Shown here in pieces: positions 3,129 to 23,200 of a DNA stretch of 35,052 nt; position 1 is the first letter of the stretch; every line of letters starts with the position of its first letter. The notes beneath the pieces were generated by a model that saw only the letters and a program-made list of their open reading frames with translations, made no database searches and was not told where the DNA came from. The stretch comes from a virus (Duplodnaviria; Caudoviricetes). The DNA lies in IMG/VR virus record IMGVR_UViG_3300020183_000248, positions 1-35,052 of that record; one strand, given 5' to 3'. Made by a program: the position numbers and the translations under genes.

Positions 3129-4887
3129 CTTAGATAAGTTCAGTCGTTTTTGCCGTGAGTTAACGGTAGAGACAAAAGAGATGGGAATGCAGAAGTTAGG
3201 CACCAAACTCTTAGGAACCCAAACCTATGTGATGCAAGAGATTGCTAAGGGTTTGCAAGAGGACAAGCATTTCTTTGTGATTCTTAAGGGCAGGCAGTTA
3301 GGGATTACTACGATCTCACTAGCATTAGACCTTTACTGGCACTTCTTACACCCTGGGTTTCAGGGGACGCTTACTACTGATACGGAAGAGAACAGAGACC
3401 AGTTCAGAACGACATTAGCGATGTACATGGATGGTTTGCCACCTGAGTACAAGATTCCGTTAATGAGTCATAACAGAAATCAATTGGTTTTGAAGAATCG
3501 ATCAAGATTGTTTTATCAGGTAGCCGGTTTGCGAAGCAAAGGGTCACTGGGGCGTGGTAAGGCGATTACGTATTTGCATGGCACAGAGACATCGTCATGG
3601 GGTGATGAGGAAGGATTGGCATCGTTGTTGGCTTCGCTTGCCGAGCGTAATCCTGCAAGGCTTTATTTGTTTGAGAGCACGGCCCGTGGATTCAATATGT
3701 TTCATGACATGTACATCACGGCAAAGAGGGCTAAAACACAACATGCGATCTTTTGCGGATGGTGGCGCAATGAGTTGTATCAGGTTGAAGCGACCAATCC
3801 GATTTACAAAGTCTATTGGGATGGCAAGTTAAGTCCTGAAGAAAAGGATTGGACGAAAGAGATTAGAAAACTCTATCAGGTTGAGATCAATACGAGGCAA
3901 ATTGCTTGGTGGCGATGGAAGATGGCTGAGGGTATAAAAGACGAAGCTTTGATGTATCAGGAGTTTCCTCCCACTGAAGACTATGCCTTTGTCATGACGG
4001 GTAGTTCGTTCTTTTCAACGAGTCGTTGTACAGATGCCATGAAGGTGGCAAAAAAAACCAATGTAGATAGTTACCGCTTTGATATTGGTCAATACTTTGA
4101 AGACACAACGCTTATGCGTTCGACTGAGCGCTTAGCAACCGTCAAGGTTTGGGAAGAACCCAAGGCCGAAGGCTATTACGTGATTGGTGCTGATCCAGCC
4201 TATGGGTCATCGGATTGGGCAGATCGTTTTTGTTTACAGGTCTATCGTTGCTATGCAGATGGTTTAGATCAGGTAGCAGAGTTTGCGACCTCTGAACTTA
4301 ACACCTATCAGTTTGCATGGATCATTTGTTATTTTGCTGGCGCATATAGGAACTCAACCTTAAACCTGGAAGTTAATGGGCCAGGGCAGGCGGTAATCAA
4401 TGAGATCAAAAATCTCAAGCGACAGGCAGCAACCCTGCCAGAAAAATATGGGACAGGGTTATTTGCGGTGCTCTCTAACATGCAACATTACTTATGGCGG
4501 CGTAATGACTCGATGGGTGGTTGGTCTAACTCCATTGGGTATATGACAACTGCAGCAACCAAAGAACGCATGATGGCTTACTTCAAGGATTATTTTGAAC
4601 GTGGCATGATGGGTGTGTACTCTGAAGACACCATTGAAGAAATGAAGTCGATTGTCAGAGATGGCTCAAGCATTGCAGCCTATGGGCGCAACAAAGATGA
4701 TCGGGTGATGGCAACAGCGTTAGCCTGTGTAGCTTATGCAGAGCAAGTGCAACCAAGATTGTTGGCTGCTCGCGTGACACGCAAGGTTGTTGCACTGCAA
4801 GCAAGAACCCCGCCTGAGTCACAAGTTGTTGGCAGGCAGATCAACAACTATTTGCAATACCTTGGAATTAAGCAAAGTGCAAACTAA
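3118..4887 (+). CDS. terL: Terminase large subunit
   Basis: Walker A-like LKGRQLGITT, Walker B-like YLHGTE, coupling motif ESTARG, nuclease motifs IGADPA and DDRVMA. Likely start MKFDL at 3118. Confidence 0.93.
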   Translation: MKFDLDKFSRFCRELTVETKEMGMQKLGTKLLGTQTYVMQEIAKGLQEDKHFFVILKGRQLGITTISLALDLYWHFLHPGFQGTLTTDTEENRDQFRTTLAMYMDGLPPEYKIPLMSHNRNQLVLKNRSRLFYQVAGLRSKGSLGRGKAITYLHGTETSSWGDEEGLASLLASLAERNPARLYLFESTARGFNMFHDMYITAKRAKTQHAIFCGWWRNELYQVEATNPIYKVYWDGKLSPEEKDWTKEIRKLYQVEINTRQIAWWRWKMAEGIKDEALMYQEFPPTEDYAFVMTGSSFFSTSRCTDAMKVAKKTNVDSYRFDIGQYFEDTTLMRSTERLATVKVWEEPKAEGYYVIGADPAYGSSDWADRFCLQVYRCYADGLDQVAEFATSELNTYQFAWIICYFAGAYRNSTLNLEVNGPGQAVINEIKNLKRQAATLPEKYGTGLFAVLSNMQHYLWRRNDSMGGWSNSIGYMTTAATKERMMAYFKDYFERGMMGVYSEDTIEEMKSIVRDGSSIAAYGRNKDDRVMATALACVAYAEQVQPRLLAARVTRKVVALQARTPPESQVVGRQINNYLQYLGIKQSAN

Positions 4888-5287: not shown

Positions 5288-5705
5288 TTACAAATGTCCA
5301 GCACACGGATTCTTTGAAAGCAATCAACCGGTATGTCCTCACGGCTGTGATGATGTGCAACTGGTGTTCTTGCAACCCGTTGGGTTGAAATCTGATAGCA
5401 CCAAACACGCTGATACCACCATGCGTCAATTGGCTAAGGATTACAGCATGGGTGATATTAAGTCAGTGCGTGAAGGTGAAGCCCAGCCTCATGCTTTATT
5501 AAACAACAAACAAGCAGCCCGTAAAGACCATCCTTTTGCGTTAAAGTGGGGTAATCCTACAGAGATTGGCGGTTTTAATTTAAATTCAATCAAAGGTGAA
5601 CAGGTGCAAGGACTTGCAAGCATGAGAGAATCGGGTGTATCGTTGCCTAAATTGCGTCCTTCCACGGTCATTAGAGATCACGAAAACTTACAAGTCAAAA
5701 CCTAA
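5271..5705 (+). CDS. FmdB-like zinc-ribbon protein
   Basis: HDYKCPAHGFFE...VCPHGC; AGGAG SD. Confidence 0.75.
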   Translation: MAVVHDYKCPAHGFFESNQPVCPHGCDDVQLVFLQPVGLKSDSTKHADTTMRQLAKDYSMGDIKSVREGEAQPHALLNNKQAARKDHPFALKWGNPTEIGGFNLNSIKGEQVQGLASMRESGVSLPKLRPSTVIRDHENLQVKT

Positions 5706-7357
5706 TGCGTATACCTGTCAATCCGATTGAGCGTGAGTTTTTCTACAATGACATTGCCAATAAGTGCATGGTCAGTTTGAATGAACGTAAGGCTGACTAT
5801 CAGACGCTGCGCTCTTTTTACTTGTTTGGTTCTGGGCCAGACGAAGCCCCTGCACATTTCAACAAAATATTCCCGCACATTGATCAGCTTGCTAGCTTTC
5901 TTTACTCAGCAGAAACCACACGGTTTTCCATTACCCTAGGTGCCTCGGTCAACCAAGAAGAACAAACGAAAGTCCCTGTACTAACGCAAGCACTCAATGA
6001 TGAGTGGATTAACAGCAACGCCGATCAAATCTTTTCTCAAGCTTTGTCATGGTCATTGTGTTTCAATTCCATGTTTATCAAACTGGTCTACAACAAAGGC
6101 ATTCATCCTTATGTTGTTGAGCCAGGAACTGTGGGTGTCTTGCGTGAAGACAGTGCGCACACGGATCGGCAAGAGGCTATATGCCAGTGGTACTACATCA
6201 CAAAGAGCGAACTCTACAATCGGCTCTACAAGCATCCAAAACGTGAAGAGATTGTCAGGCGTGTAAATGCGACAGAGAAGTCTTCACAAGAAATGCCGCA
6301 AGGTGTTGAGCGACTCATCATGTCGCAAGTCAACCCCACCATGTACGGTAATGTCAATTTGGACTTAGGTGGCGTGTCGCGTTACAGGGCAAGGGTGGCT
6401 GAAGAACTTGTCGAAATGAAAGAACTCTACATTTGGAATGATGAAATTGATGACTATCAGTTTGTCACCATTGCATGCCCAGATGTCGTCATTTATGACC
6501 GTGAAATAGCAAGTGTGTATCTCAAAGGTGAGGTGCCGCTTATTCAGGTCTGCCCAAACCCACAGTATGACTATTACTGGGGAATCTCTGAGGTTAGCAG
6601 ACTAGTTTGCTTGCAGCAAATGCGCAATAAACGCATGAGTGAGATTCTTGATTTGCTTAATAAACAAGTAAGTCCACCAACAGCCTTGGTAGGCTTTATG
6701 GGCATACCGGATGAAAAGAACTTTGCATTAAACCGTGCTGGCGGCTTGCTTTACACCGACTCGCCTAATGCGAAGGTTGAGCAACTTGCCCCGCAAATCC
6801 CTAATGACCTATTTCGTGAGATTGACCAGATTGACAACATGTTTGCTGAAGCGTCTGGCATTGTTTCTGTCTTGCAAGGTCGTGGTGAAACAGGTGTGCG
6901 ATCAGCAGGTCATGCCTCTCAGTTGGCTCGCATGGGTGCGTCCCGTGCCAAACGAAGGGCTTTAGTGGTGGAAGATGCTCTTGAGAAAGTAGCGACGATG
7001 TATCTCAAGCTCATGCGCAGATATGAAGATCGTAGTTACAAAGACATTTACAATATGCCTTTTATGGCCGAACAATTTAGCAATGATTTCGTGGTAAAAG
7101 TCGATGCGCATAGTAATTCGCCGATTTTTATGGAGGATACGCGCCAGTTAGCCTTCAGTCTTTTCAAAGCACAAGCCATTTCAAAAGAGCGTTTAATTGA
7201 TTTGCTTGAACCACCTATGAAACAATTGCTTAAGGATGATTTGAAGAAGCAAGAGTTTAATGCTGCACAGCAGCAACAAACAACGGCTCCTTCTCAAGTT
7301 CCTACGCCCCAGAGTTCTGCTGGCCCTGCCAATATGCCACTTAAACAGGTAAAGTAA
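5705..7357 (+). CDS. Portal protein
   Basis: 550 aa, located after terL, helical, with portal-like YYWGISEVSRL...QQMRN and SGI..V.QG.....VRSA segments and a Q/P-rich tail. Confidence 0.85.
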   Translation: MRIPVNPIEREFFYNDIANKCMVSLNERKADYQTLRSFYLFGSGPDEAPAHFNKIFPHIDQLASFLYSAETTRFSITLGASVNQEEQTKVPVLTQALNDEWINSNADQIFSQALSWSLCFNSMFIKLVYNKGIHPYVVEPGTVGVLREDSAHTDRQEAICQWYYITKSELYNRLYKHPKREEIVRRVNATEKSSQEMPQGVERLIMSQVNPTMYGNVNLDLGGVSRYRARVAEELVEMKELYIWNDEIDDYQFVTIACPDVVIYDREIASVYLKGEVPLIQVCPNPQYDYYWGISEVSRLVCLQQMRNKRMSEILDLLNKQVSPPTALVGFMGIPDEKNFALNRAGGLLYTDSPNAKVEQLAPQIPNDLFREIDQIDNMFAEASGIVSVLQGRGETGVRSAGHASQLARMGASRAKRRALVVEDALEKVATMYLKLMRRYEDRSYKDIYNMPFMAEQFSNDFVVKVDAHSNSPIFMEDTRQLAFSLFKAQAISKERLIDLLEPPMKQLLKDDLKKQEFNAAQQQQTTAPSQVPTPQSSAGPANMPLKQVK

Positions 7358-7509
7358 TGCAAAAAGAAGCCTATCGAACAGCGGGTGATCAACCCAGAAT
7401 GACTAAAGACTTAATGAAAGAAACGAATCGCCCCCCTTCATTGCAATACAATCGCAGTGCAATACAAGGTAAAGTGCGATCTAGTGGTACTCGACAATCT
7501 TCACGTTAA
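7357..7509 (+). CDS. Small basic protein (50 aa) MQKEAYRTAGDQPR...KVRSSGTRQSSR
   Basis: Read manually; TAATG overlap with the portal stop. Confidence 0.7.
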   Translation: MQKEAYRTAGDQPRMTKDLMKETNRPPSLQYNRSAIQGKVRSSGTRQSSR

Positions 7510-7520
7510 AGGAATATGCC

Positions 7521-7565
7521 ATGTACGCACGTATGATGAAGCGTTCACGCAAGACCCGTCGCTAA
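7521..7565 (+). CDS. Arg/Lys-rich micropeptide (14 aa) MYARMMKRSRKTRR
   Basis: AAGGA SD immediately after the previous stop; all Arg codons are CGT/CGC. Confidence 0.55.
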   Translation: MYARMMKRSRKTRR

Positions 7566-7585
7566 CCCCATCCTTAGCGACAAAA

Positions 7586-7619
7586 GGGTATGGCTGCTTG
7601 CCCGATTAACTAAGTGGCC
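7586..7619 (+). promoter_or_regulatory. Predicted H-type RNA pseudoknot
   Basis: P1 GGGUA(7586-90)/UGCCC(7599-7603); P2 GGCUGCU(7592-98)/AGUGGCC(7613-19); 1-nt L1; A-rich L3. Confidence 0.45.
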
Positions 7620-7641
7620 GCGCCTTGATAGGAGAAAAATC

Positions 7642-7677
7642 ATGGCACGCAAAGGACGTAAAGGCCGTCGGAAGTAA
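7642..7677 (+). CDS. Arg/Lys-rich micropeptide (11 aa) MARKGRKGRRK
   Basis: AGGAG SD 7 nt upstream, ATG-GCA start, TAA stop. Confidence 0.65.
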   Translation: MARKGRKGRRK

Positions 7678-7745
7678 TTCCGCTCTCTCCAGGGGGAGGG
7701 AGTCAAAACTATCCCCCATCGATTAATATTGAATGAGCATATGCA

Positions 7746-8183
7746 ATGAGTGTCCCAGCAGACAAACTGATGGAAATGATTCGTAGCGATCAGGCTAAAG
7801 GCCAGATGCCCGATGACGACACGACGAAACCTGCGTTGTCGGGTGCTGAAACGCCGCCGATGGCTTCGCCCATGCTCACGCCTGAAGACAAGAAAGGCGA
7901 TCAAGCCAGTGCAAAGATTAATGTGCAAATGGCAATGGACTTGATGCAGCAGGCATTACCTGCTTTTGGTTCTGAATCTGAAGAGGGCAAAAGAATTCTT
8001 CAGGTGTTAGGAAGTCTCGCAAGGGTCTTTGGTGAAACAGAAGCCAAGACCAAGGAATTGATTCCTGCCGAGATTATTCAGATGATTCAATCGCTGCCGC
8101 AAGCTGGCGGTGCATCTCCAGAGATGCGCGTTATTGCCAAAGCACCCATTGGGGGTACACAATCCCCTCCCATTCCGATCTAG
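7746..8183 (+). CDS. Hypothetical head-module protein (145 aa, Pro/Met-rich)
   Basis: ORF between portal and scaffold. Confidence 0.8.
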   Translation: MSVPADKLMEMIRSDQAKGQMPDDDTTKPALSGAETPPMASPMLTPEDKKGDQASAKINVQMAMDLMQQALPAFGSESEEGKRILQVLGSLARVFGETEAKTKELIPAEIIQMIQSLPQAGGASPEMRVIAKAPIGGTQSPPIPI

Positions 8184-8189
8184 GAGTTA

Positions 8190-8378
8190 ATGATGGATTT
8201 ATTTAAGCCGAGAGGCGCACAAACCATTCGCCGTCCTCTGGACAACAAGAAAGAGAACGGCCAGATTGTTAACCCATACCGTTACTCGGATTTTGGCGGC
8301 TTAAGTTCTGCTGCCAAAGCGGGGTCAAAGAACAAAATGACCTTGAGCAATCCTGGTGATACCAAAAAAGTGATCTAA
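8190..8378 (+). CDS. Small basic head-module protein (62 aa)
   Basis: AGGAG SD; Lys/Arg-rich. Confidence 0.8.
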   Translation: MMDLFKPRGAQTIRRPLDNKKENGQIVNPYRYSDFGGLSSAAKAGSKNKMTLSNPGDTKKVI

Positions 8379-8396: not shown

Positions 8397-8933
8397 ATGT
8401 CACTTGAAAACTTATCTGATGGCGAGATTCGAGAGTTGGCACTCCTTGCTAAGGAGTTGCACGACAATCCGGATACGCGCCGTGACGCGCTGCGTTTGAC
8501 GAAGAAAATCCGGCAAGATTTGCCGATTCCTGAGTTGGACTTGCAAGATACGGTTGAAAAGACTCGCGCTCACATGCAATCAAAGATTGATGCCCTTGAA
8601 GCCAAGTTGCGAGAAAACGACGCTCGCAAGACGTTGGAAGAAAGGCGCAATGCTTTGAAGTCAAAAGGTAAAGTATCGTCTGATGACGAGATTAAAGAAG
8701 TTGAGAAGCTGATGGTTGAAAAGAAAATTGCCGACCATGAAACGGCTGCTGACTACTTTAATTGGATGAAACAAGCCGAAGTTGATAAGCCTACCCCGAT
8801 CTTTCAAGGATCGCCTGTGCTTAATAACTTTGATTTGAAGAACTACTTTAAGAACCCGCAGAATGCTGCGCGGGAGAATGCAATGCAAGCCTTGAATGAG
8901 CTTCGCAGTCCGAGGCGACCAATAGGTTTGTGA
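8397..8933 (+). CDS. Probable capsid scaffolding protein
   Basis: Charged coiled-coil protein directly upstream of the capsid gene. Confidence 0.65.
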   Translation: MSLENLSDGEIRELALLAKELHDNPDTRRDALRLTKKIRQDLPIPELDLQDTVEKTRAHMQSKIDALEAKLRENDARKTLEERRNALKSKGKVSSDDEIKEVEKLMVEKKIADHETAADYFNWMKQAEVDKPTPIFQGSPVLNNFDLKNYFKNPQNAARENAMQALNELRSPRRPIGL

Positions 8934-8971: not shown

Positions 8972-9982
8972 ATGCCTATTGGTGGCGGTATTATCCCAGC
9001 AACGGGTACGAGTCAGTATAACGAACTGACATACGTCACCCGTAGGGCGTTCATTCCCAAACTGATCGTCCAGCTTTACAACTCAACCCCTTTGTTGGCG
9101 GCACTGCTTGCTAACAGCCAGACAGCCTCTGGTGGCGTTTCCTCAGTTACTGTTCCTGTGCAAGGTTCACAATTTGTGAATGCCCAGTGGTCAGACTACT
9201 CAGGTTCGTTTGCCCAGCCCTCCGTGCAGCAAGGTGCATGGAATGCTGAGTGGAATCTGAAACTGATGATTGCACCGGTTCCCTTCCTCGGTATGGAAGG
9301 TGCAGTACAGCAAGACTATGCTGTGATTCCTTTGATTGAGGCTCGCATGAACGATGCGACCAACGTCATGATGGATGCTATGGCAACGTCGCTCTATACC
9401 TCTGATGGTACGGGTGCTTACTCGCAACAGTTCACGGGCCTGCCCATTGCTGTTGATAGTGCTGGTACTTATGCAGGCTTGAGCCGCTCGACCTACACTT
9501 GGTGGGCATCAAGTGAGTACGCTGCTGGCTCGGTTAATCCGACCCGTCAGAACGTGCTTCAGTACATCAGCGGGACAGTTAAGAAGGCTGCTGAAATGCC
9601 AACCTTTGGCGTATGCGGCTTTGGCACATGGACGCTTTTGGCACAAGACTTTGTTGGCCAAGAGACTTACATGATCACGCCTGGAAGCAACTTTGCTACC
9701 GGTGAAGATGGCCCAGGTTCTGCCTTTCGCGCGTTGATGGTTGCTGGTGTGCCGATCTACCCTGATCCTTATTGCCCAGAGGGTACGCTTTACTTGCTCA
9801 ACAGCAATTACCTGAGCATGTACATTCACAACCAAGCGCAGTTTGCGTTCACTGGTTTTGAATCAACCCTTCCCAACTGGCAGATTGGTTATGTGGGTGC
9901 TGTGTTGACCATTGCTGAAATGGTAAGCACCAAGCCCAAGTCCATGACCAAAGTGACCGGTTACAACAGTCTCACGCTGTAA
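8972..9982 (+). CDS. Major capsid protein
   Basis: 336 aa, position after the scaffold, biased codon use, HK97-fold-like segments (SLYTSDG...FTGL; GVPIYPDPYCPEGTLYLLN). Confidence 0.88.
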   Translation: MPIGGGIIPATGTSQYNELTYVTRRAFIPKLIVQLYNSTPLLAALLANSQTASGGVSSVTVPVQGSQFVNAQWSDYSGSFAQPSVQQGAWNAEWNLKLMIAPVPFLGMEGAVQQDYAVIPLIEARMNDATNVMMDAMATSLYTSDGTGAYSQQFTGLPIAVDSAGTYAGLSRSTYTWWASSEYAAGSVNPTRQNVLQYISGTVKKAAEMPTFGVCGFGTWTLLAQDFVGQETYMITPGSNFATGEDGPGSAFRALMVAGVPIYPDPYCPEGTLYLLNSNYLSMYIHNQAQFAFTGFESTLPNWQIGYVGAVLTIAEMVSTKPKSMTKVTGYNSLTL

Positions 9983-19729: not shown

Positions 19730-22700
19730 ATGGCTACATTTGCCGTCGCTGATCCAATAAGTAAAGTCGCGGCACAACTTGCCCAATACATAGACCCATC
19801 ATCTTTTGGTGGTGCTTGGACTACACAATCAGGGAAAAGCAGTGGCCCAGGTTATGGTCCTGAAGGTTTTTTGCGAGTTATGGCAGAAAACTTTATCAAC
19901 CAGACAGGGCTTACCGACCTGAACAAGCTGGGTTACGGAAAGATAAATACGCCTGAAAATGCCTCGGTTGTTCAACAGCCTACAGGTTACGATGAAGACT
20001 TCGTCCCAACTGGATATCAATGGGTTACTCCAACGGCTGATTTTGAAGTAGATCAAAACGGTTTTCTTGTTGCGGGTGGCTACCGTGGTTTAACACCTCA
20101 AGAAATTAAAACTGTTAAAGATGTTGGTAATGGTAGGTATACAGCAGACGTAGTAGTGGGGCGTGAAGGCTACTACAACAAAGATACAGGCAAGGCTGTC
20201 AAATTTAACGGTACGCTCGGTGGTTACGGTGAAGGCCCAGGCTGGACAAATACGTCACTTACATTCAAAGACGACAGGCCTGTTATTAAAACAACAGGTG
20301 AAGATTCGAGTGATTTAGGAACCATACTTCCTATCATTTCAATTGCGTTGTTAGCGATACCTGGAATTGGACAAGCCATTGGTTCTGCGATTCTTCCTAC
20401 AGGTGTGTCAGCGGCAACGGCGACTGCTGTAGGCAATGCTGTTGTTAACGCTGGCTTGCAAGTTGCGGCAGGTGCCCCTGTTGAACAAGCGCTTACAAAT
20501 GCAGCAGCTTCTTTAGGCGTATCTCAATTAGTTCCAAACCTATCTAGCAATTCATTTGTTGACAATGCTGTTAGGTCGGTTGCTACGGCAACGCTTACTG
20601 GCGGGGATGTTGAAAAGGCGCTTGCTAATTCATTGATAGCAACGGGTGGTAATGAAGTTTTGGGCAATGTTTCTTTTACAGGTAATGCAACGGTTGATAG
20701 CGGTATTGCCTCTGCAATTACAAGTGGCGTAATGGCTGCTGCGACGGATGGGGATGTTGCCCAATCGATTGCAAAAGGGTTTGCCGCTGGCACAAGCGGA
20801 CAGATTACTAAAGAAGAAAGAATGGCAGAGTCAGCACGATCTGGTGCTGGGTTTGTTGGCGAGGTTGTAACTGAACCAACTAATGTTACAGGTGCTACAG
20901 GTAATGACACGGCAACGAGTGGGATTGGTGTTGATAGTGTTAATGCAGGAGCATCTCAAGATGATGTCTTGAATATTCTGGCGCAAGAGCAAATTGCTAA
21001 TCAAACACAGCCTACAAATTTAGATGCAACTAGCGAGGCGGCTTTTCAAACATGGATTCGTAGTACAGATTGGTTCAAAGAGTTTGTAAATGAATATGGA
21101 GAAGAGCCTGATCTCAATACAAAAGATTACGATTACCGTGCTGCTTGGAAAGCTGGCGTAGTACCTGAACGCGACCCATACGATCAAAATAGATACCATT
21201 GGCCGTCTTCTTTGCCAAGCGGAGAGTTGCTCAAATCGGAAGATCACCCGACAGCATGGAAAGAATATTTCATGCGAGACACCGGAATAAATCCAGATTC
21301 AATTGGCATTAAAACAAAAGAAGAAGCAGAAAGATATTTGAGTAGTAAACAATCAAATGCAGAGCCTGCTATTGATCCACGAATAGTTGCGCAAGGCGTA
21401 ACAGGTGGTCAGTTTGGCGAAGGTGGGTTGCTACAAACTGGAATGGACACTGTTTCTGGATTGACGGGACAAGACACAATTTTTGGTGGGCAAGCGGGTG
21501 GTGACAAAATCTTTGGCGTTTATTCGTTAACGCCGAATCAAACAGCATCTGCCCCTCGATTGGTTTATGACAGAGAAACCAATCAACCTTATGCAGAAGC
21601 GATTGACATTACTGATGTTGATAGCGATGGCAATGTATTAAAATTTAGTGTTTTTAGAGACTTACAAACAGGCAAGGTTGACTATCGCAGAGTTGAAGAG
21701 GCAGGCGATCAAATTGTTGTGCGTGTTTCACAACAACCACCTACATATTATGTAACAGACCAATCCGGCAATATTGCCAGAGATTCACAAGGCAATCCGA
21801 TACTGACAGCAGAAGGTGCTGCTGTTGAAGCGGGTGAGCAAGAAGAGGCTAAAACAGATACTGCCACGGCTGGGCAACCGCAACTTAGTCAGATTGATCA
21901 AGATGTTTTAGAGCAAATACAGCGTGGCCAAGGACTTGTTAGCGAACCGCCTCAAATAACGGCGCAAGTGCCAATGCCAGTTGCACAAGATGTAACACAA
22001 GTTGTTAATGATGGTGGTGAAGACCAGATTGGTGGTCAAGAACAAACTTACATACCGCCTTCTGCGGCAACAACAACGCCTACGGTTACACAACCACCGC
22101 CTGATTCGACCTTTCAATCGTTTCGTAGGGTCGGTAGGTTCGGTAGGTTCGGTAATTTGAATGTAGCAGCACAAGATAGAACGCTACCACCTGCTCCCGT
22201 TGTTGACTCTGCACAAGGGTTGGTTGGAGAGTCTGTTGTTGTTGTTGCGGTTGACCCAGTTAACAACGCAGCGCTTGTGATTGATGCGAGTGGTAATACG
22301 TCTGTTGTACCTGCTATTGATAGTGCTACAGGGAATCCTGTCAATACGGGTGAGGCGGTAACCTTAACGCAAGACAATTCGTTGACTACTGATCAAGCAA
22401 CGGTCGCAGGCAGTCCTGCTACTGATGTAGTAAGTGGCACACCTGTTGACACTGGTGTTGTTGACACTGGAGTCACTGCTCCTGTTGACACTGGAGTCAC
22501 TGATACTGGTGCTGTTGATACAACGCAGGTTGCTATTGGCGGTGAAGCGCCAAGCACCGGCACAGCGGTTGTTGATACAACTGGAGGAGGCTTGCCAAGC
22601 ACAGACGTTGGTGGCGTTGTTGGCGGTGAGCCTGGAGGGGCGGTAGATGTTGGCGAAGTAGGTGAGCAAGCGGGCGGTGATATAGGCGGCTTGCCTGGAG

Positions 22701-23200
22701 GTGACCTAGGAGGTGACCTAGGAGGTGACCTAGGGGGTGATCTAGGGGGTGATCTAGGGGGTGACCTGGGCGCAATAGATGCAGGATTGCCAACTGACAC
22801 AGCAGGTGTTGGGGACACAGGTGGTCAACTTGCGGAGGAACCTTCTGTTCTCCCCCCAGAAGAAATTTATGATTCTGGTGACATTACTGACGATGAAATA
22901 TTACAACTCATTACTGATAGCCTTGCTGGTGGCGTTGAGGCAGATCGCGGAGTAGAAGAAGAGGGTGAGGGCGGGCTTCCTACAGAAGACACGCGATTGA
23001 CCATAACGCCAAGGGTTGTTTCAACACTGCCTGTAAGGGTTCCGGCAGGTCAACGTGTGCAAGATACTACCAGCATATTGCCAACGCGAGTAGCATTGTC
23101 AGAAGGTTCAGGTGACGACGTTTACGGTACACCAGAAGAGGAGCAAGACCCTGTCTGGAATATACGTTCATTGAAGCTCAGAAGAGCATTAAGGATTTGA
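19730..23200 (+). CDS. Large internal virion/ejection protein (1156 aa, acidic, with hydrophobic Ala/Gly segment)
   Basis: First of four large genes after the tail module; TM-like LGTILPIISIALLAIPGIG; low-complexity acidic C-half. Confidence 0.7.
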   Translation: MATFAVADPISKVAAQLAQYIDPSSFGGAWTTQSGKSSGPGYGPEGFLRVMAENFINQTGLTDLNKLGYGKINTPENASVVQQPTGYDEDFVPTGYQWVTPTADFEVDQNGFLVAGGYRGLTPQEIKTVKDVGNGRYTADVVVGREGYYNKDTGKAVKFNGTLGGYGEGPGWTNTSLTFKDDRPVIKTTGEDSSDLGTILPIISIALLAIPGIGQAIGSAILPTGVSAATATAVGNAVVNAGLQVAAGAPVEQALTNAAASLGVSQLVPNLSSNSFVDNAVRSVATATLTGGDVEKALANSLIATGGNEVLGNVSFTGNATVDSGIASAITSGVMAAATDGDVAQSIAKGFAAGTSGQITKEERMAESARSGAGFVGEVVTEPTNVTGATGNDTATSGIGVDSVNAGASQDDVLNILAQEQIANQTQPTNLDATSEAAFQTWIRSTDWFKEFVNEYGEEPDLNTKDYDYRAAWKAGVVPERDPYDQNRYHWPSSLPSGELLKSEDHPTAWKEYFMRDTGINPDSIGIKTKEEAERYLSSKQSNAEPAIDPRIVAQGVTGGQFGEGGLLQTGMDTVSGLTGQDTIFGGQAGGDKIFGVYSLTPNQTASAPRLVYDRETNQPYAEAIDITDVDSDGNVLKFSVFRDLQTGKVDYRRVEEAGDQIVVRVSQQPPTYYVTDQSGNIARDSQGNPILTAEGAAVEAGEQEEAKTDTATAGQPQLSQIDQDVLEQIQRGQGLVSEPPQITAQVPMPVAQDVTQVVNDGGEDQIGGQEQTYIPPSAATTTPTVTQPPPDSTFQSFRRVGRFGRFGNLNVAAQDRTLPPAPVVDSAQGLVGESVVVVAVDPVNNAALVIDASGNTSVVPAIDSATGNPVNTGEAVTLTQDNSLTTDQATVAGSPATDVVSGTPVDTGVVDTGVTAPVDTGVTDTGAVDTTQVAIGGEAPSTGTAVVDTTGGGLPSTDVGGVVGGEPGGAVDVGEVGEQAGGDIGGLPGGDLGGDLGGDLGGDLGGDLGGDLGAIDAGLPTDTAGVGDTGGQLAEEPSVLPPEEIYDSGDITDDEILQLITDSLAGGVEADRGVEEEGEGGLPTEDTRLTITPRVVSTLPVRVPAGQRVQDTTSILPTRVALSEGSGDDVYGTPEEEQDPVWNIRSLKLRRALRI
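22697..22768 (+). repeat. 12-bp tandem repeat x6 (GGRGGTGAYCTR) encoding (GGDL)6
   Basis: Directly visible; in frame. Confidence 0.95.

Follow-up and report, generated by a model that had tools for sequence, protein, structure and literature searches.

Within the head-gene module of a tailed-phage contig (IMG/VR record IMGVR_UViG_3300020183_000248; a single contig of 35,052 bases with 47.5% GC, analyzed over its full length and hereafter the window), we identified two micro-genes for short polycations between the genes for the portal protein and the major capsid protein. Based on comparisons of such intervals across near and very distant phages, we propose that they represent a class of podovirus head-module micro-genes for polycations that is real, ancient and hitherto unannotated, with their coding status strongly supported and their function unproven. 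Like all features below for which no strand is given, both open reading frames (ORFs) lie on the plus strand. Peptide 1 (7521..7565) is 14 amino acids (aa) long with 7 arginines or lysines (R+K), and is preceded by the Shine-Dalgarno sequence (SD) AAGGA at 7509..7513, 7 nucleotides (nt) 5' of its ATG. Peptide 2 (7642..7677) has 11 aa, 7 of them R+K, and the SD AGGAG at 7630..7634, likewise 7 nt 5' of its ATG, and occupies the slot before a gene for a 145-aa protein. The two peptides, of about 1.3 and 1.9 kDa, have a net charge of +7. An earlier, sequence-only reading of this DNA had described three consecutive ORFs after the portal gene, namely these two and a basic 50-aa ORF, and their coordinates, SDs and charges are borne out here; a recount likewise agrees that neither micropeptide has an acidic residue and that 8 of their 9 Arg codons are CGT/CGC. 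That account had taken the gap to be otherwise empty, which it is not, as two pseudoknots lie in it.

A micro-ORF was defined by an SD, a start codon, a length of 7-22 aa, at least 38% R+K and at most one acidic residue. This rule recovers three ORFs in the window, all of them on the plus strand: peptides 1 and 2 and one lying out of frame within the 145-aa gene. Among 500 dinucleotide shuffles of the gap, 13 contained one such ORF and none contained two.

Conservation and coding signature in near relatives

Portal searches recovered 154 loci including the window (the near set; relatives are designated by L-numbers). We left out 29, of which 7 had a portal that extended beyond the contig and 22, mostly at contig ends, had no homolog of the 145-aa gene downstream; the remaining 125 gave 119 distinct intervals from the portal to the next gene. 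At least one ORF of the form SD-ATG-(R/K-rich)-stop is present in 117 of these: 85 have two, 31 have one and a single interval has three. Of the two intervals with none, one has ATA in place of ATG (L062) and the other a longer Lys/Pro/Met-rich ORF that falls under the cut-off (L142). The gaps thus hold 204 micro-ORFs in 51,635 bases, with none on the minus strand, versus 43 in 1,749,962 bases elsewhere in the same loci, an approximately 160-fold difference in density. The start codon is ATG in 201 of the 204, the SD spacing peaks at 6 nt (125 of 204), and no alternative reading frame is open in more than 39 of them.

The peptides range from 9 to 17 aa, varying by whole codons, and comprise about 57% and 68% R+K, with an acidic residue in just one of 83 distinct near peptides. 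The 82 distinct DNA versions of peptide 1 (12-17 aa) yield a ratio of nonsynonymous to synonymous change (pN/pS) of 0.22 and the 46 versions of peptide 2 a ratio of 0.27, both being computed from related same-length pairs with at least 75% amino acid identity, a filter that caps pN. CGT/CGC account for 451 of 513 Arg codons and CGA for one; the corresponding count for CGT/CGC in the window portal gene is 20 of 32. The peptide genes also prefer GCT/GCA and GGT, a preference typical of highly expressed genes. Two or three copies occur in 86 of the 119 near intervals; peptide 2 is the form kept in distant relatives, and peptide 1 is probably an additional copy of the polycation gene confined to this lineage.

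Because SD, start, frame and stop are retained while the sequences vary synonymously and by whole codons, we regard it as strongly supported, from these comparisons, that both micro-ORFs are conserved protein-coding genes for short polycations. The sequence-only reading had proposed to look for a conserved SD-ATG-(R/K)n-stop arrangement with synonymous variation, and this is what the intervals display (117/119 near, and 70/70 and 11/11 in the two more distant groups considered below); it had named a lack of conservation of start, frame or basic composition as grounds for refutation, and we found instead that even very distant phages retain the start, SD spacing, stop and charge. It also rightly expected gene callers to skip the micropeptides, which are uncalled in the GenBank relatives MW202825 and MW202753 and in the cultured phages Tunturi 1 and 2. 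The former two records (L081 and L082) have minus-strand hypothetical coding sequences (CDSs) across the cassette. Of 12 RNA data sets four, all in the form of contigs, were compared with the window; the cassette is covered in X1, X4 and X6 and not in X11, which indicates no level, strand or ends, and DNA may be present in them. One near locus (L145) has an additional 32-aa Lys-rich ORF 5' of the homolog of the 50-aa ORF, right after the portal stop, and the gap of L148 is similarly long.

Distant relatives and cultured phages

A DNA pattern derived from the peptides only retrieved at least 120 viral loci, of which 115 adjoin head genes of the window's family; the other five are short and have no such match. 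One distant locus among them, L325, shares the identical gene order with the window at just 28% identity in the portal and 38% in the capsid protein. Searches with its capsid protein gave 80 loci; three without a portal were left out, and the rest provide 70 distinct portal-to-capsid intervals (the far group), several from contigs of 62-66 kb, to which a looser rule (33% R+K, up to 45 aa) was applied. A basic micro-ORF lies 5' of the 145-aa homolog in all 70, including Arg-only forms (L427, L430) and Lys-only forms (L408, L428), and 10 of the 60 resolved intervals carry two or three copies. Three loci of this group (L456, L458, L467) have a second basic micro-ORF 5' of the capsid gene, outside the usual slot, between the scaffold-like and capsid genes. 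In L325 a tRNA gene (3584-3655) stands directly 3' of the portal stop.

A second DNA pattern matched three loci, including L470 and L471 from a third group, whose portal and capsid proteins belong to the same PHROG families as those of the window. No tblastn match to window genes was obtained for this group, and the profile comparison of the L470 capsid and portal with the window's family is weak (E ~0.09), so that the link rests on the shared PHROG families. In all 11 loci of the group, two of which are apparently identical, the stretch from the portal to a scaffold-like gene contains at least one and up to three basic ORFs, each SD-led and 11-45 aa long. The third-group capsid protein in turn reaches, at 29% identity, the cultured podoviruses Tunturi 1 and 2 (PMC11924767), and in the matching slot these have an uncalled SD-led 22-aa ORF (11 Lys, 5 Glu) together with the 43-aa Lys-rich gp5. 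In Tunturi 1, which infects Tunturiibacter psychrotolerans X5P2, the 22-aa ORF lies at about 5736-5804 of record PP887698. No proteome was found, and the main text of the paper describing them makes no mention of mass spectrometry (PMC11924767). Across all groups, small size, positive charge and place are retained, and sequence is not.

We rejected a notion that the peptides offset a capsid protein poor in basic residues: although R+K makes up 3.6-5.4% of the capsid protein in the near and far groups, as against 7.2-8.7% in five isolates lacking the ORF, the third group carries the ORF and still reaches 6.5-7.6%. A wide capsid profile search returned 1031 proteins, without gene context.

RNA structures flanking the second peptide gene

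An H-type pseudoknot, PK1 (7586..7619), with stem 1 formed by 7586-7588/7601-7603 and stem 2 by 7592-7599/7612-7619 with a central tandem G-U, ends 22 nt 5' of the peptide 2 ATG in the window and about 18-25 nt in relatives, leaving the SD free. When 65 non-redundant copies are aligned by sequence only, pairing extends to 92.6% of cells, versus 40-57% in slid controls; 7 of the 12 pairs changed on both sides, with 94 two-sided cells versus 23.5 in shuffles (0 of 500). These copies were chosen by their core motif and the invariance of the core is partly due to that selection. Of 118 portal-anchored near intervals, 89 have the core; those without it are mainly ones that have lost peptide 2, together with one clade in which the peptide is retained. 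A resemblance of the core to a portion of 16S rRNA was set aside, given the covariation within the stem.

A second H-type pseudoknot, PK2 (7682..7717; pairs 7682-7687/7698-7703 and 7692-7697/7712-7717), lies 3' of peptide 2. A scripted search of 95 distinct regions downstream of the peptide detected it in 71, versus 7 of 285 shuffles, in many differing, fully paired sequences, usually a few bases 5' of a TTGAC site. As the far group has no visible PK1 core, PK1 and PK2 are lineage add-ons. The window segment 7200-7900 scored below the gathering threshold against Rfam 15 (best E 0.4), and eight relatives gave two tRNAs only; neither pseudoknot belongs to an Rfam family. The part searched of the IMG/VR structured-RNA catalog (PMC10690425) gave no match, and PK1 or PK2 may be in its remainder.

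Fold prediction places a hairpin of variable sequence over the peptide 1 stop (7558..7581), and relatives often have a GNRA-type hairpin, read from their sequences, shortly after that stop. In three distant loci a TTGACA is followed 17-18 nt later by a TAGTGT-type hexamer just 5' of PK1 (L150 ~8300-8360, L151 ~7440-7475, L152 ~7690-7725), which suggests a conserved late promoter and a stand-alone peptide transcript. One far subgroup (L390-L401, L446, L447, L455) has a different conserved, probably structured element 20-100 nt 5' of the SD. In L473, which lies on the same contig as L470, complementary purine-rich and pyrimidine-rich stretches between the first and second basic ORFs may form a pseudoknot or hairpin.

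Functional inference

In light of their composition, position and dosage, we posit that these peptides are produced late and in many copies, and that the head retains them as counter-ions of the DNA, a proposal whose prospects of being right or wrong we consider evenly balanced. The DNA-neutralizing role raised in the sequence-only reading stands as the best remaining explanation and is partly supported. The peptide genes sit among virion structural genes, between portal and capsid, and their products are very small, strongly basic and nearly acid-free, a point that is weaker for the Tunturi phages; selection on a dosed polycation would be expected to yield conserved size, charge and place together with tandem copies. 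The peptides would be translated at a high level, late and together with the head proteins, and, as their position and chemistry suggest, would enter the procapsid during assembly. Once enclosed, they might bind the incoming DNA and screen DNA-DNA repulsion as polyamines do, a step that we draw from position, chemistry and the analogy with adenovirus Mu, microvirus DNA-binding proteins and polyamines. PK1 and PK2 may shield a mini-message of about 130 nt from exonucleases; alternatively, PK1 could be an operator through which excess peptide stops its own translation, comparable to T4 gp32 acting on its pseudoknot. More tentatively, and with rather more doubt than confidence, we envisage that a broad fresh-water and soil podovirus lineage has, as one of its core head genes and among the shortest structural genes of phages, one encoding a protamine-like micro-peptide that is built into the procapsid and sets internal DNA pressure without host polyamines, being dosed here by gene duplication and a self-regulating, pseudoknot-bracketed mini-message.

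Several observations weigh against enclosure as a counter-ion. Neutralizing 10% of the 70,104 phosphates needs about 880 peptides and 50% about 4,400, which is above the copy number of Mu; given some 880 copies for each tenth of the phosphates, partial screening is more realistic than full condensation. The distant cultured phages Mx8, Mx9, BUCT555, ppBjS10J-1, RHph_I3_18 and 45A6 (five found by the window's capsid protein and one by that of a far relative) have no free-standing micro-ORF at this place, implying that motor packaging can do without the peptide; in BUCT555 a 52-aa ORF with 14 R+K follows the portal. The Tunturi peptide has 5 acidic residues in 22 and some far peptides have one or two, making them less protamine-like. 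The pseudoknots are not universal, with the PK1 core absent from 29 of 118 near intervals and, as judged by eye, not seen in the far group. To these may be added the identity filter behind the pN/pS values and the far-group spacing, in that 50 of 60 intervals have no more than 20 nt between the stop and the next start, which also fits a coupling role.

That spacing bears on the other function named in the sequence-only reading, namely that the ORFs are cis-acting leaders, be it an attenuator or stalling peptide sensing Arg/Lys or a coupler passing ribosomes to the next gene. The next gene starts at most 20 nt from the stop in those 50 of 60 resolved cases (10 of 70 were not resolved) and often has no SD of its own, and structured RNA surrounds the ORFs in the near group; however, so short a distance leaves no space for an attenuator, U-tailed hairpins occur in just 4 of 117 near intervals and not in the window, and a promoter-like site follows the last peptide in 94 of 117 (none in the window), so that upstream control would be bypassed with two peptides still being kept. 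Moreover, the Arg-only, Lys-only and mixed forms offer no run of one regulated amino acid, the codons used are common ones and not rare, tandem copies recur, there is no fixed phase to either neighboring gene, and a coupler has no need of basic composition. Charge kept without sequence, tandem copies, rare terminators and promoter-like sites after the peptide together point to a dosed polycation product rather than an amino-acid-sensing leader, leaving the leader hypothesis weakened and, in our estimation, improbable. Read-through or frameshift fusion to the neighbors was rejected on the same lack of a fixed phase. We attach next to no probability to the ORFs being by-products of a conserved non-coding RNA or an opposite-strand gene: real RNA structure is present and two GenBank relatives have minus-strand CDS calls in the gap, but the two records disagree in these calls, no other frame is consistently open, and the ORFs, whose variation is synonymous and in whole codons, are retained where the pseudoknots are absent.

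If the ORFs yield dosed products, these might instead act in the infected cell rather than the particle, binding late in infection to RNA, to ribosomes or to the chromosome of host or phage (in shut-off, in DNA compaction before packaging, or as an arginine-rich-motif type RNA binder on the nearby structures). Short polycations of any kind bind both DNA and RNA, the near group has structured RNA on either side of peptide 2, and the promoter-like site just 5' of PK1 in L150-L152 would give the peptide a small transcript of its own. Yet a fixed head-module slot over very distant phages is unexpected for a host-takeover gene, the peptide persists without PK1, and the free exchange of R and K speaks against a specific RNA site; we consequently judge this unlikely, though worth keeping in view. 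Somewhat less likely still is a role as assembly cofactors on acidic surfaces of head proteins (the capsid interior, the scaffold, the 145-aa protein or a 1156-aa protein), with the peptides leaving or staying with little DNA contact. That the micro-ORF always adjoins the 145-aa gene and appears to be translationally coupled to it is compatible with such a role, as are the net charges of the 145-aa (-5), capsid (-7) and 1156-aa (-92) proteins; nevertheless, beyond charge there is no conserved residue pattern of the sort that a protein interface would need, the Tunturi protein in the 145-aa slot is approximately neutral, and low capsid R+K does not track the peptide across groups. The related suggestion in the sequence-only reading, that the peptides neutralize very acidic internal proteins, finds little support. 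Just one large late protein, the 1156-aa product of 19730-23200, is very acidic, and none is shown to be internal.

Comparison with known systems

Tailed phages are held to pump bare DNA into the shell, with its charge being screened by host ions and polyamines (PMC7226272, PMC10681747); a gene-encoded counter-ion, if confirmed, would alter the view of head pressure, stability in low-salt water and ejection for this lineage. No paper describing such micro-genes in tailed phages came up in our literature searches, although a 2022 catalog of small phage genes may list them as anonymous families. A core head gene of 10-20 codons escapes annotation, and tryptic proteomics would destroy its product; Tunturi 1 and 2 bring the question within reach of culture.

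Among known polycations, adenovirus protein X/Mu offers a close parallel in being very short and viral, its 19 aa falling in a comparable range; it is Arg-rich, late and present at 100-300 copies per virion (PMC7998265). In contrast, Mu comes from a eukaryotic virus and forms the middle part of a 79-aa precursor, from which the viral protease releases it, whereas the peptides of these tailed phages have their own SD, ATG and stop, no fixed phase to their neighbors, and Lys as commonly as Arg. Microvirus proteins of the phiX174 J type act inside the capsid and are encoded next to the capsid gene. They too are small basic phage gene products, with a basic unfolded N-terminal part (PMC9865509). 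However, they belong to single-stranded DNA phages and have a hydrophobic aromatic C-terminus, while the present peptides are shorter and end in R, K or H. Should the counter-ion proposal hold, the peptides work like Mu or J but belong to neither, having no precursor and no hydrophobic tail. The T4 internal proteins IPI-III are much larger than these peptides. They are small and dispensable, with about 360 copies of each incorporated into the prohead (PMC9958956), but are folded, and IPI, once injected, serves as a host-side inhibitor rather than as a counter-ion.

Protamines and baculovirus P6.9 are likewise small basic nucleic-acid binders for genome packing (PMC12159748, PMC6163548), though they are longer, Arg-dominated and controlled by phosphorylation, unlike the peptides here, which have 9-20 aa, are often Lys- and Gly-rich and in some cases are Arg-free. 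Polyamines in phage heads are small polycations that neutralize the packed genome (PMC7226272); as opposed to these host metabolites, which pass through capsid pores, a gene-encoded peptide would determine its own dose and would probably remain enclosed. With regard to PK1, the T4 gene 32 operator is a pseudoknot just 5' of the ribosome site through which a nucleic-acid-binding product controls its own translation (PMC10690425). The gene here is a different one, autoregulation through PK1 is only proposed, and PK1 has no Rfam match.

Neighboring genes and other features of the window

Terminase, portal, major capsid protein, tail and lysis genes were found in the window by PHROG and Pfam searches, and no tRNA or tmRNA gene was detected in it. 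The phage collection contains no cultured close relative; the portal matched two records only, both spring metagenome phages. As the 12 matches in contigs of metagenome-assembled genomes fall in unrelated phyla, no host was assigned.

The 550-aa portal protein upstream of the cassette (5705..7357) matches PHROG portal families and Pfam SU10_portal above the cut-off (E 2.3e-09). Its stop has one base in common with the basic 50-aa ORF (7357..7509; 11 R+K, 4 D+E), which has a conserved DQP motif and no PHROG, Pfam or Atlas match. Of the 119 near intervals 104 begin with a homolog of it, and none was seen in the more distant loci L150, L152 and L325, indicating a lineage-limited gene. The gene constantly 3' of the peptide (7746..8183) encodes the Pro-rich 145-aa protein with a predicted helical hairpin at residues 51-95 (structure model of mean predicted local distance difference test 62.8); it has 316 unnamed homologs, and no match to a known fold, PDB, PHROG or Pfam entry. 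Profile comparisons with its slot-mates in L470 and Tunturi were not significant, and these are positional analogs only. The sequence-only reading had called this gene the scaffold; it is possibly scaffold-like, but the 178-aa ORF (8397..8933) is the likelier scaffolding protein, judging by its position just before the capsid gene and its charged helical make-up, though it has no informative PHROG or Pfam match. Between them is a basic 62-aa ORF (8190..8378, net +7), a candidate capsid-lining protein; L325 has a small ORF at the matching position, and 42 of the 70 far intervals include a small ORF bearing a D-x-GG-R/K motif.

The major capsid protein (8972..9982) matches phrog_9953 (E 2.9e-36) and, by profile, the capsid protein of PDB 7f38 (E 6e-4). 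It is unusually low in charged residues (R+K 3.9%, D+E 6.0%), as are 129 near and 35 aligned homologs. The 1156-aa protein has an isoelectric point of about 4.1 and no PHROG or Pfam family; it is followed by neutral to basic ORFs of 360, 488 and 929 aa, also without PHROG or Pfam matches, which are possibly ejection proteins. On the minus strand, 1250-2116 strongly matches phrog_7245, annotated as an anti-restriction protein (E 6e-75).

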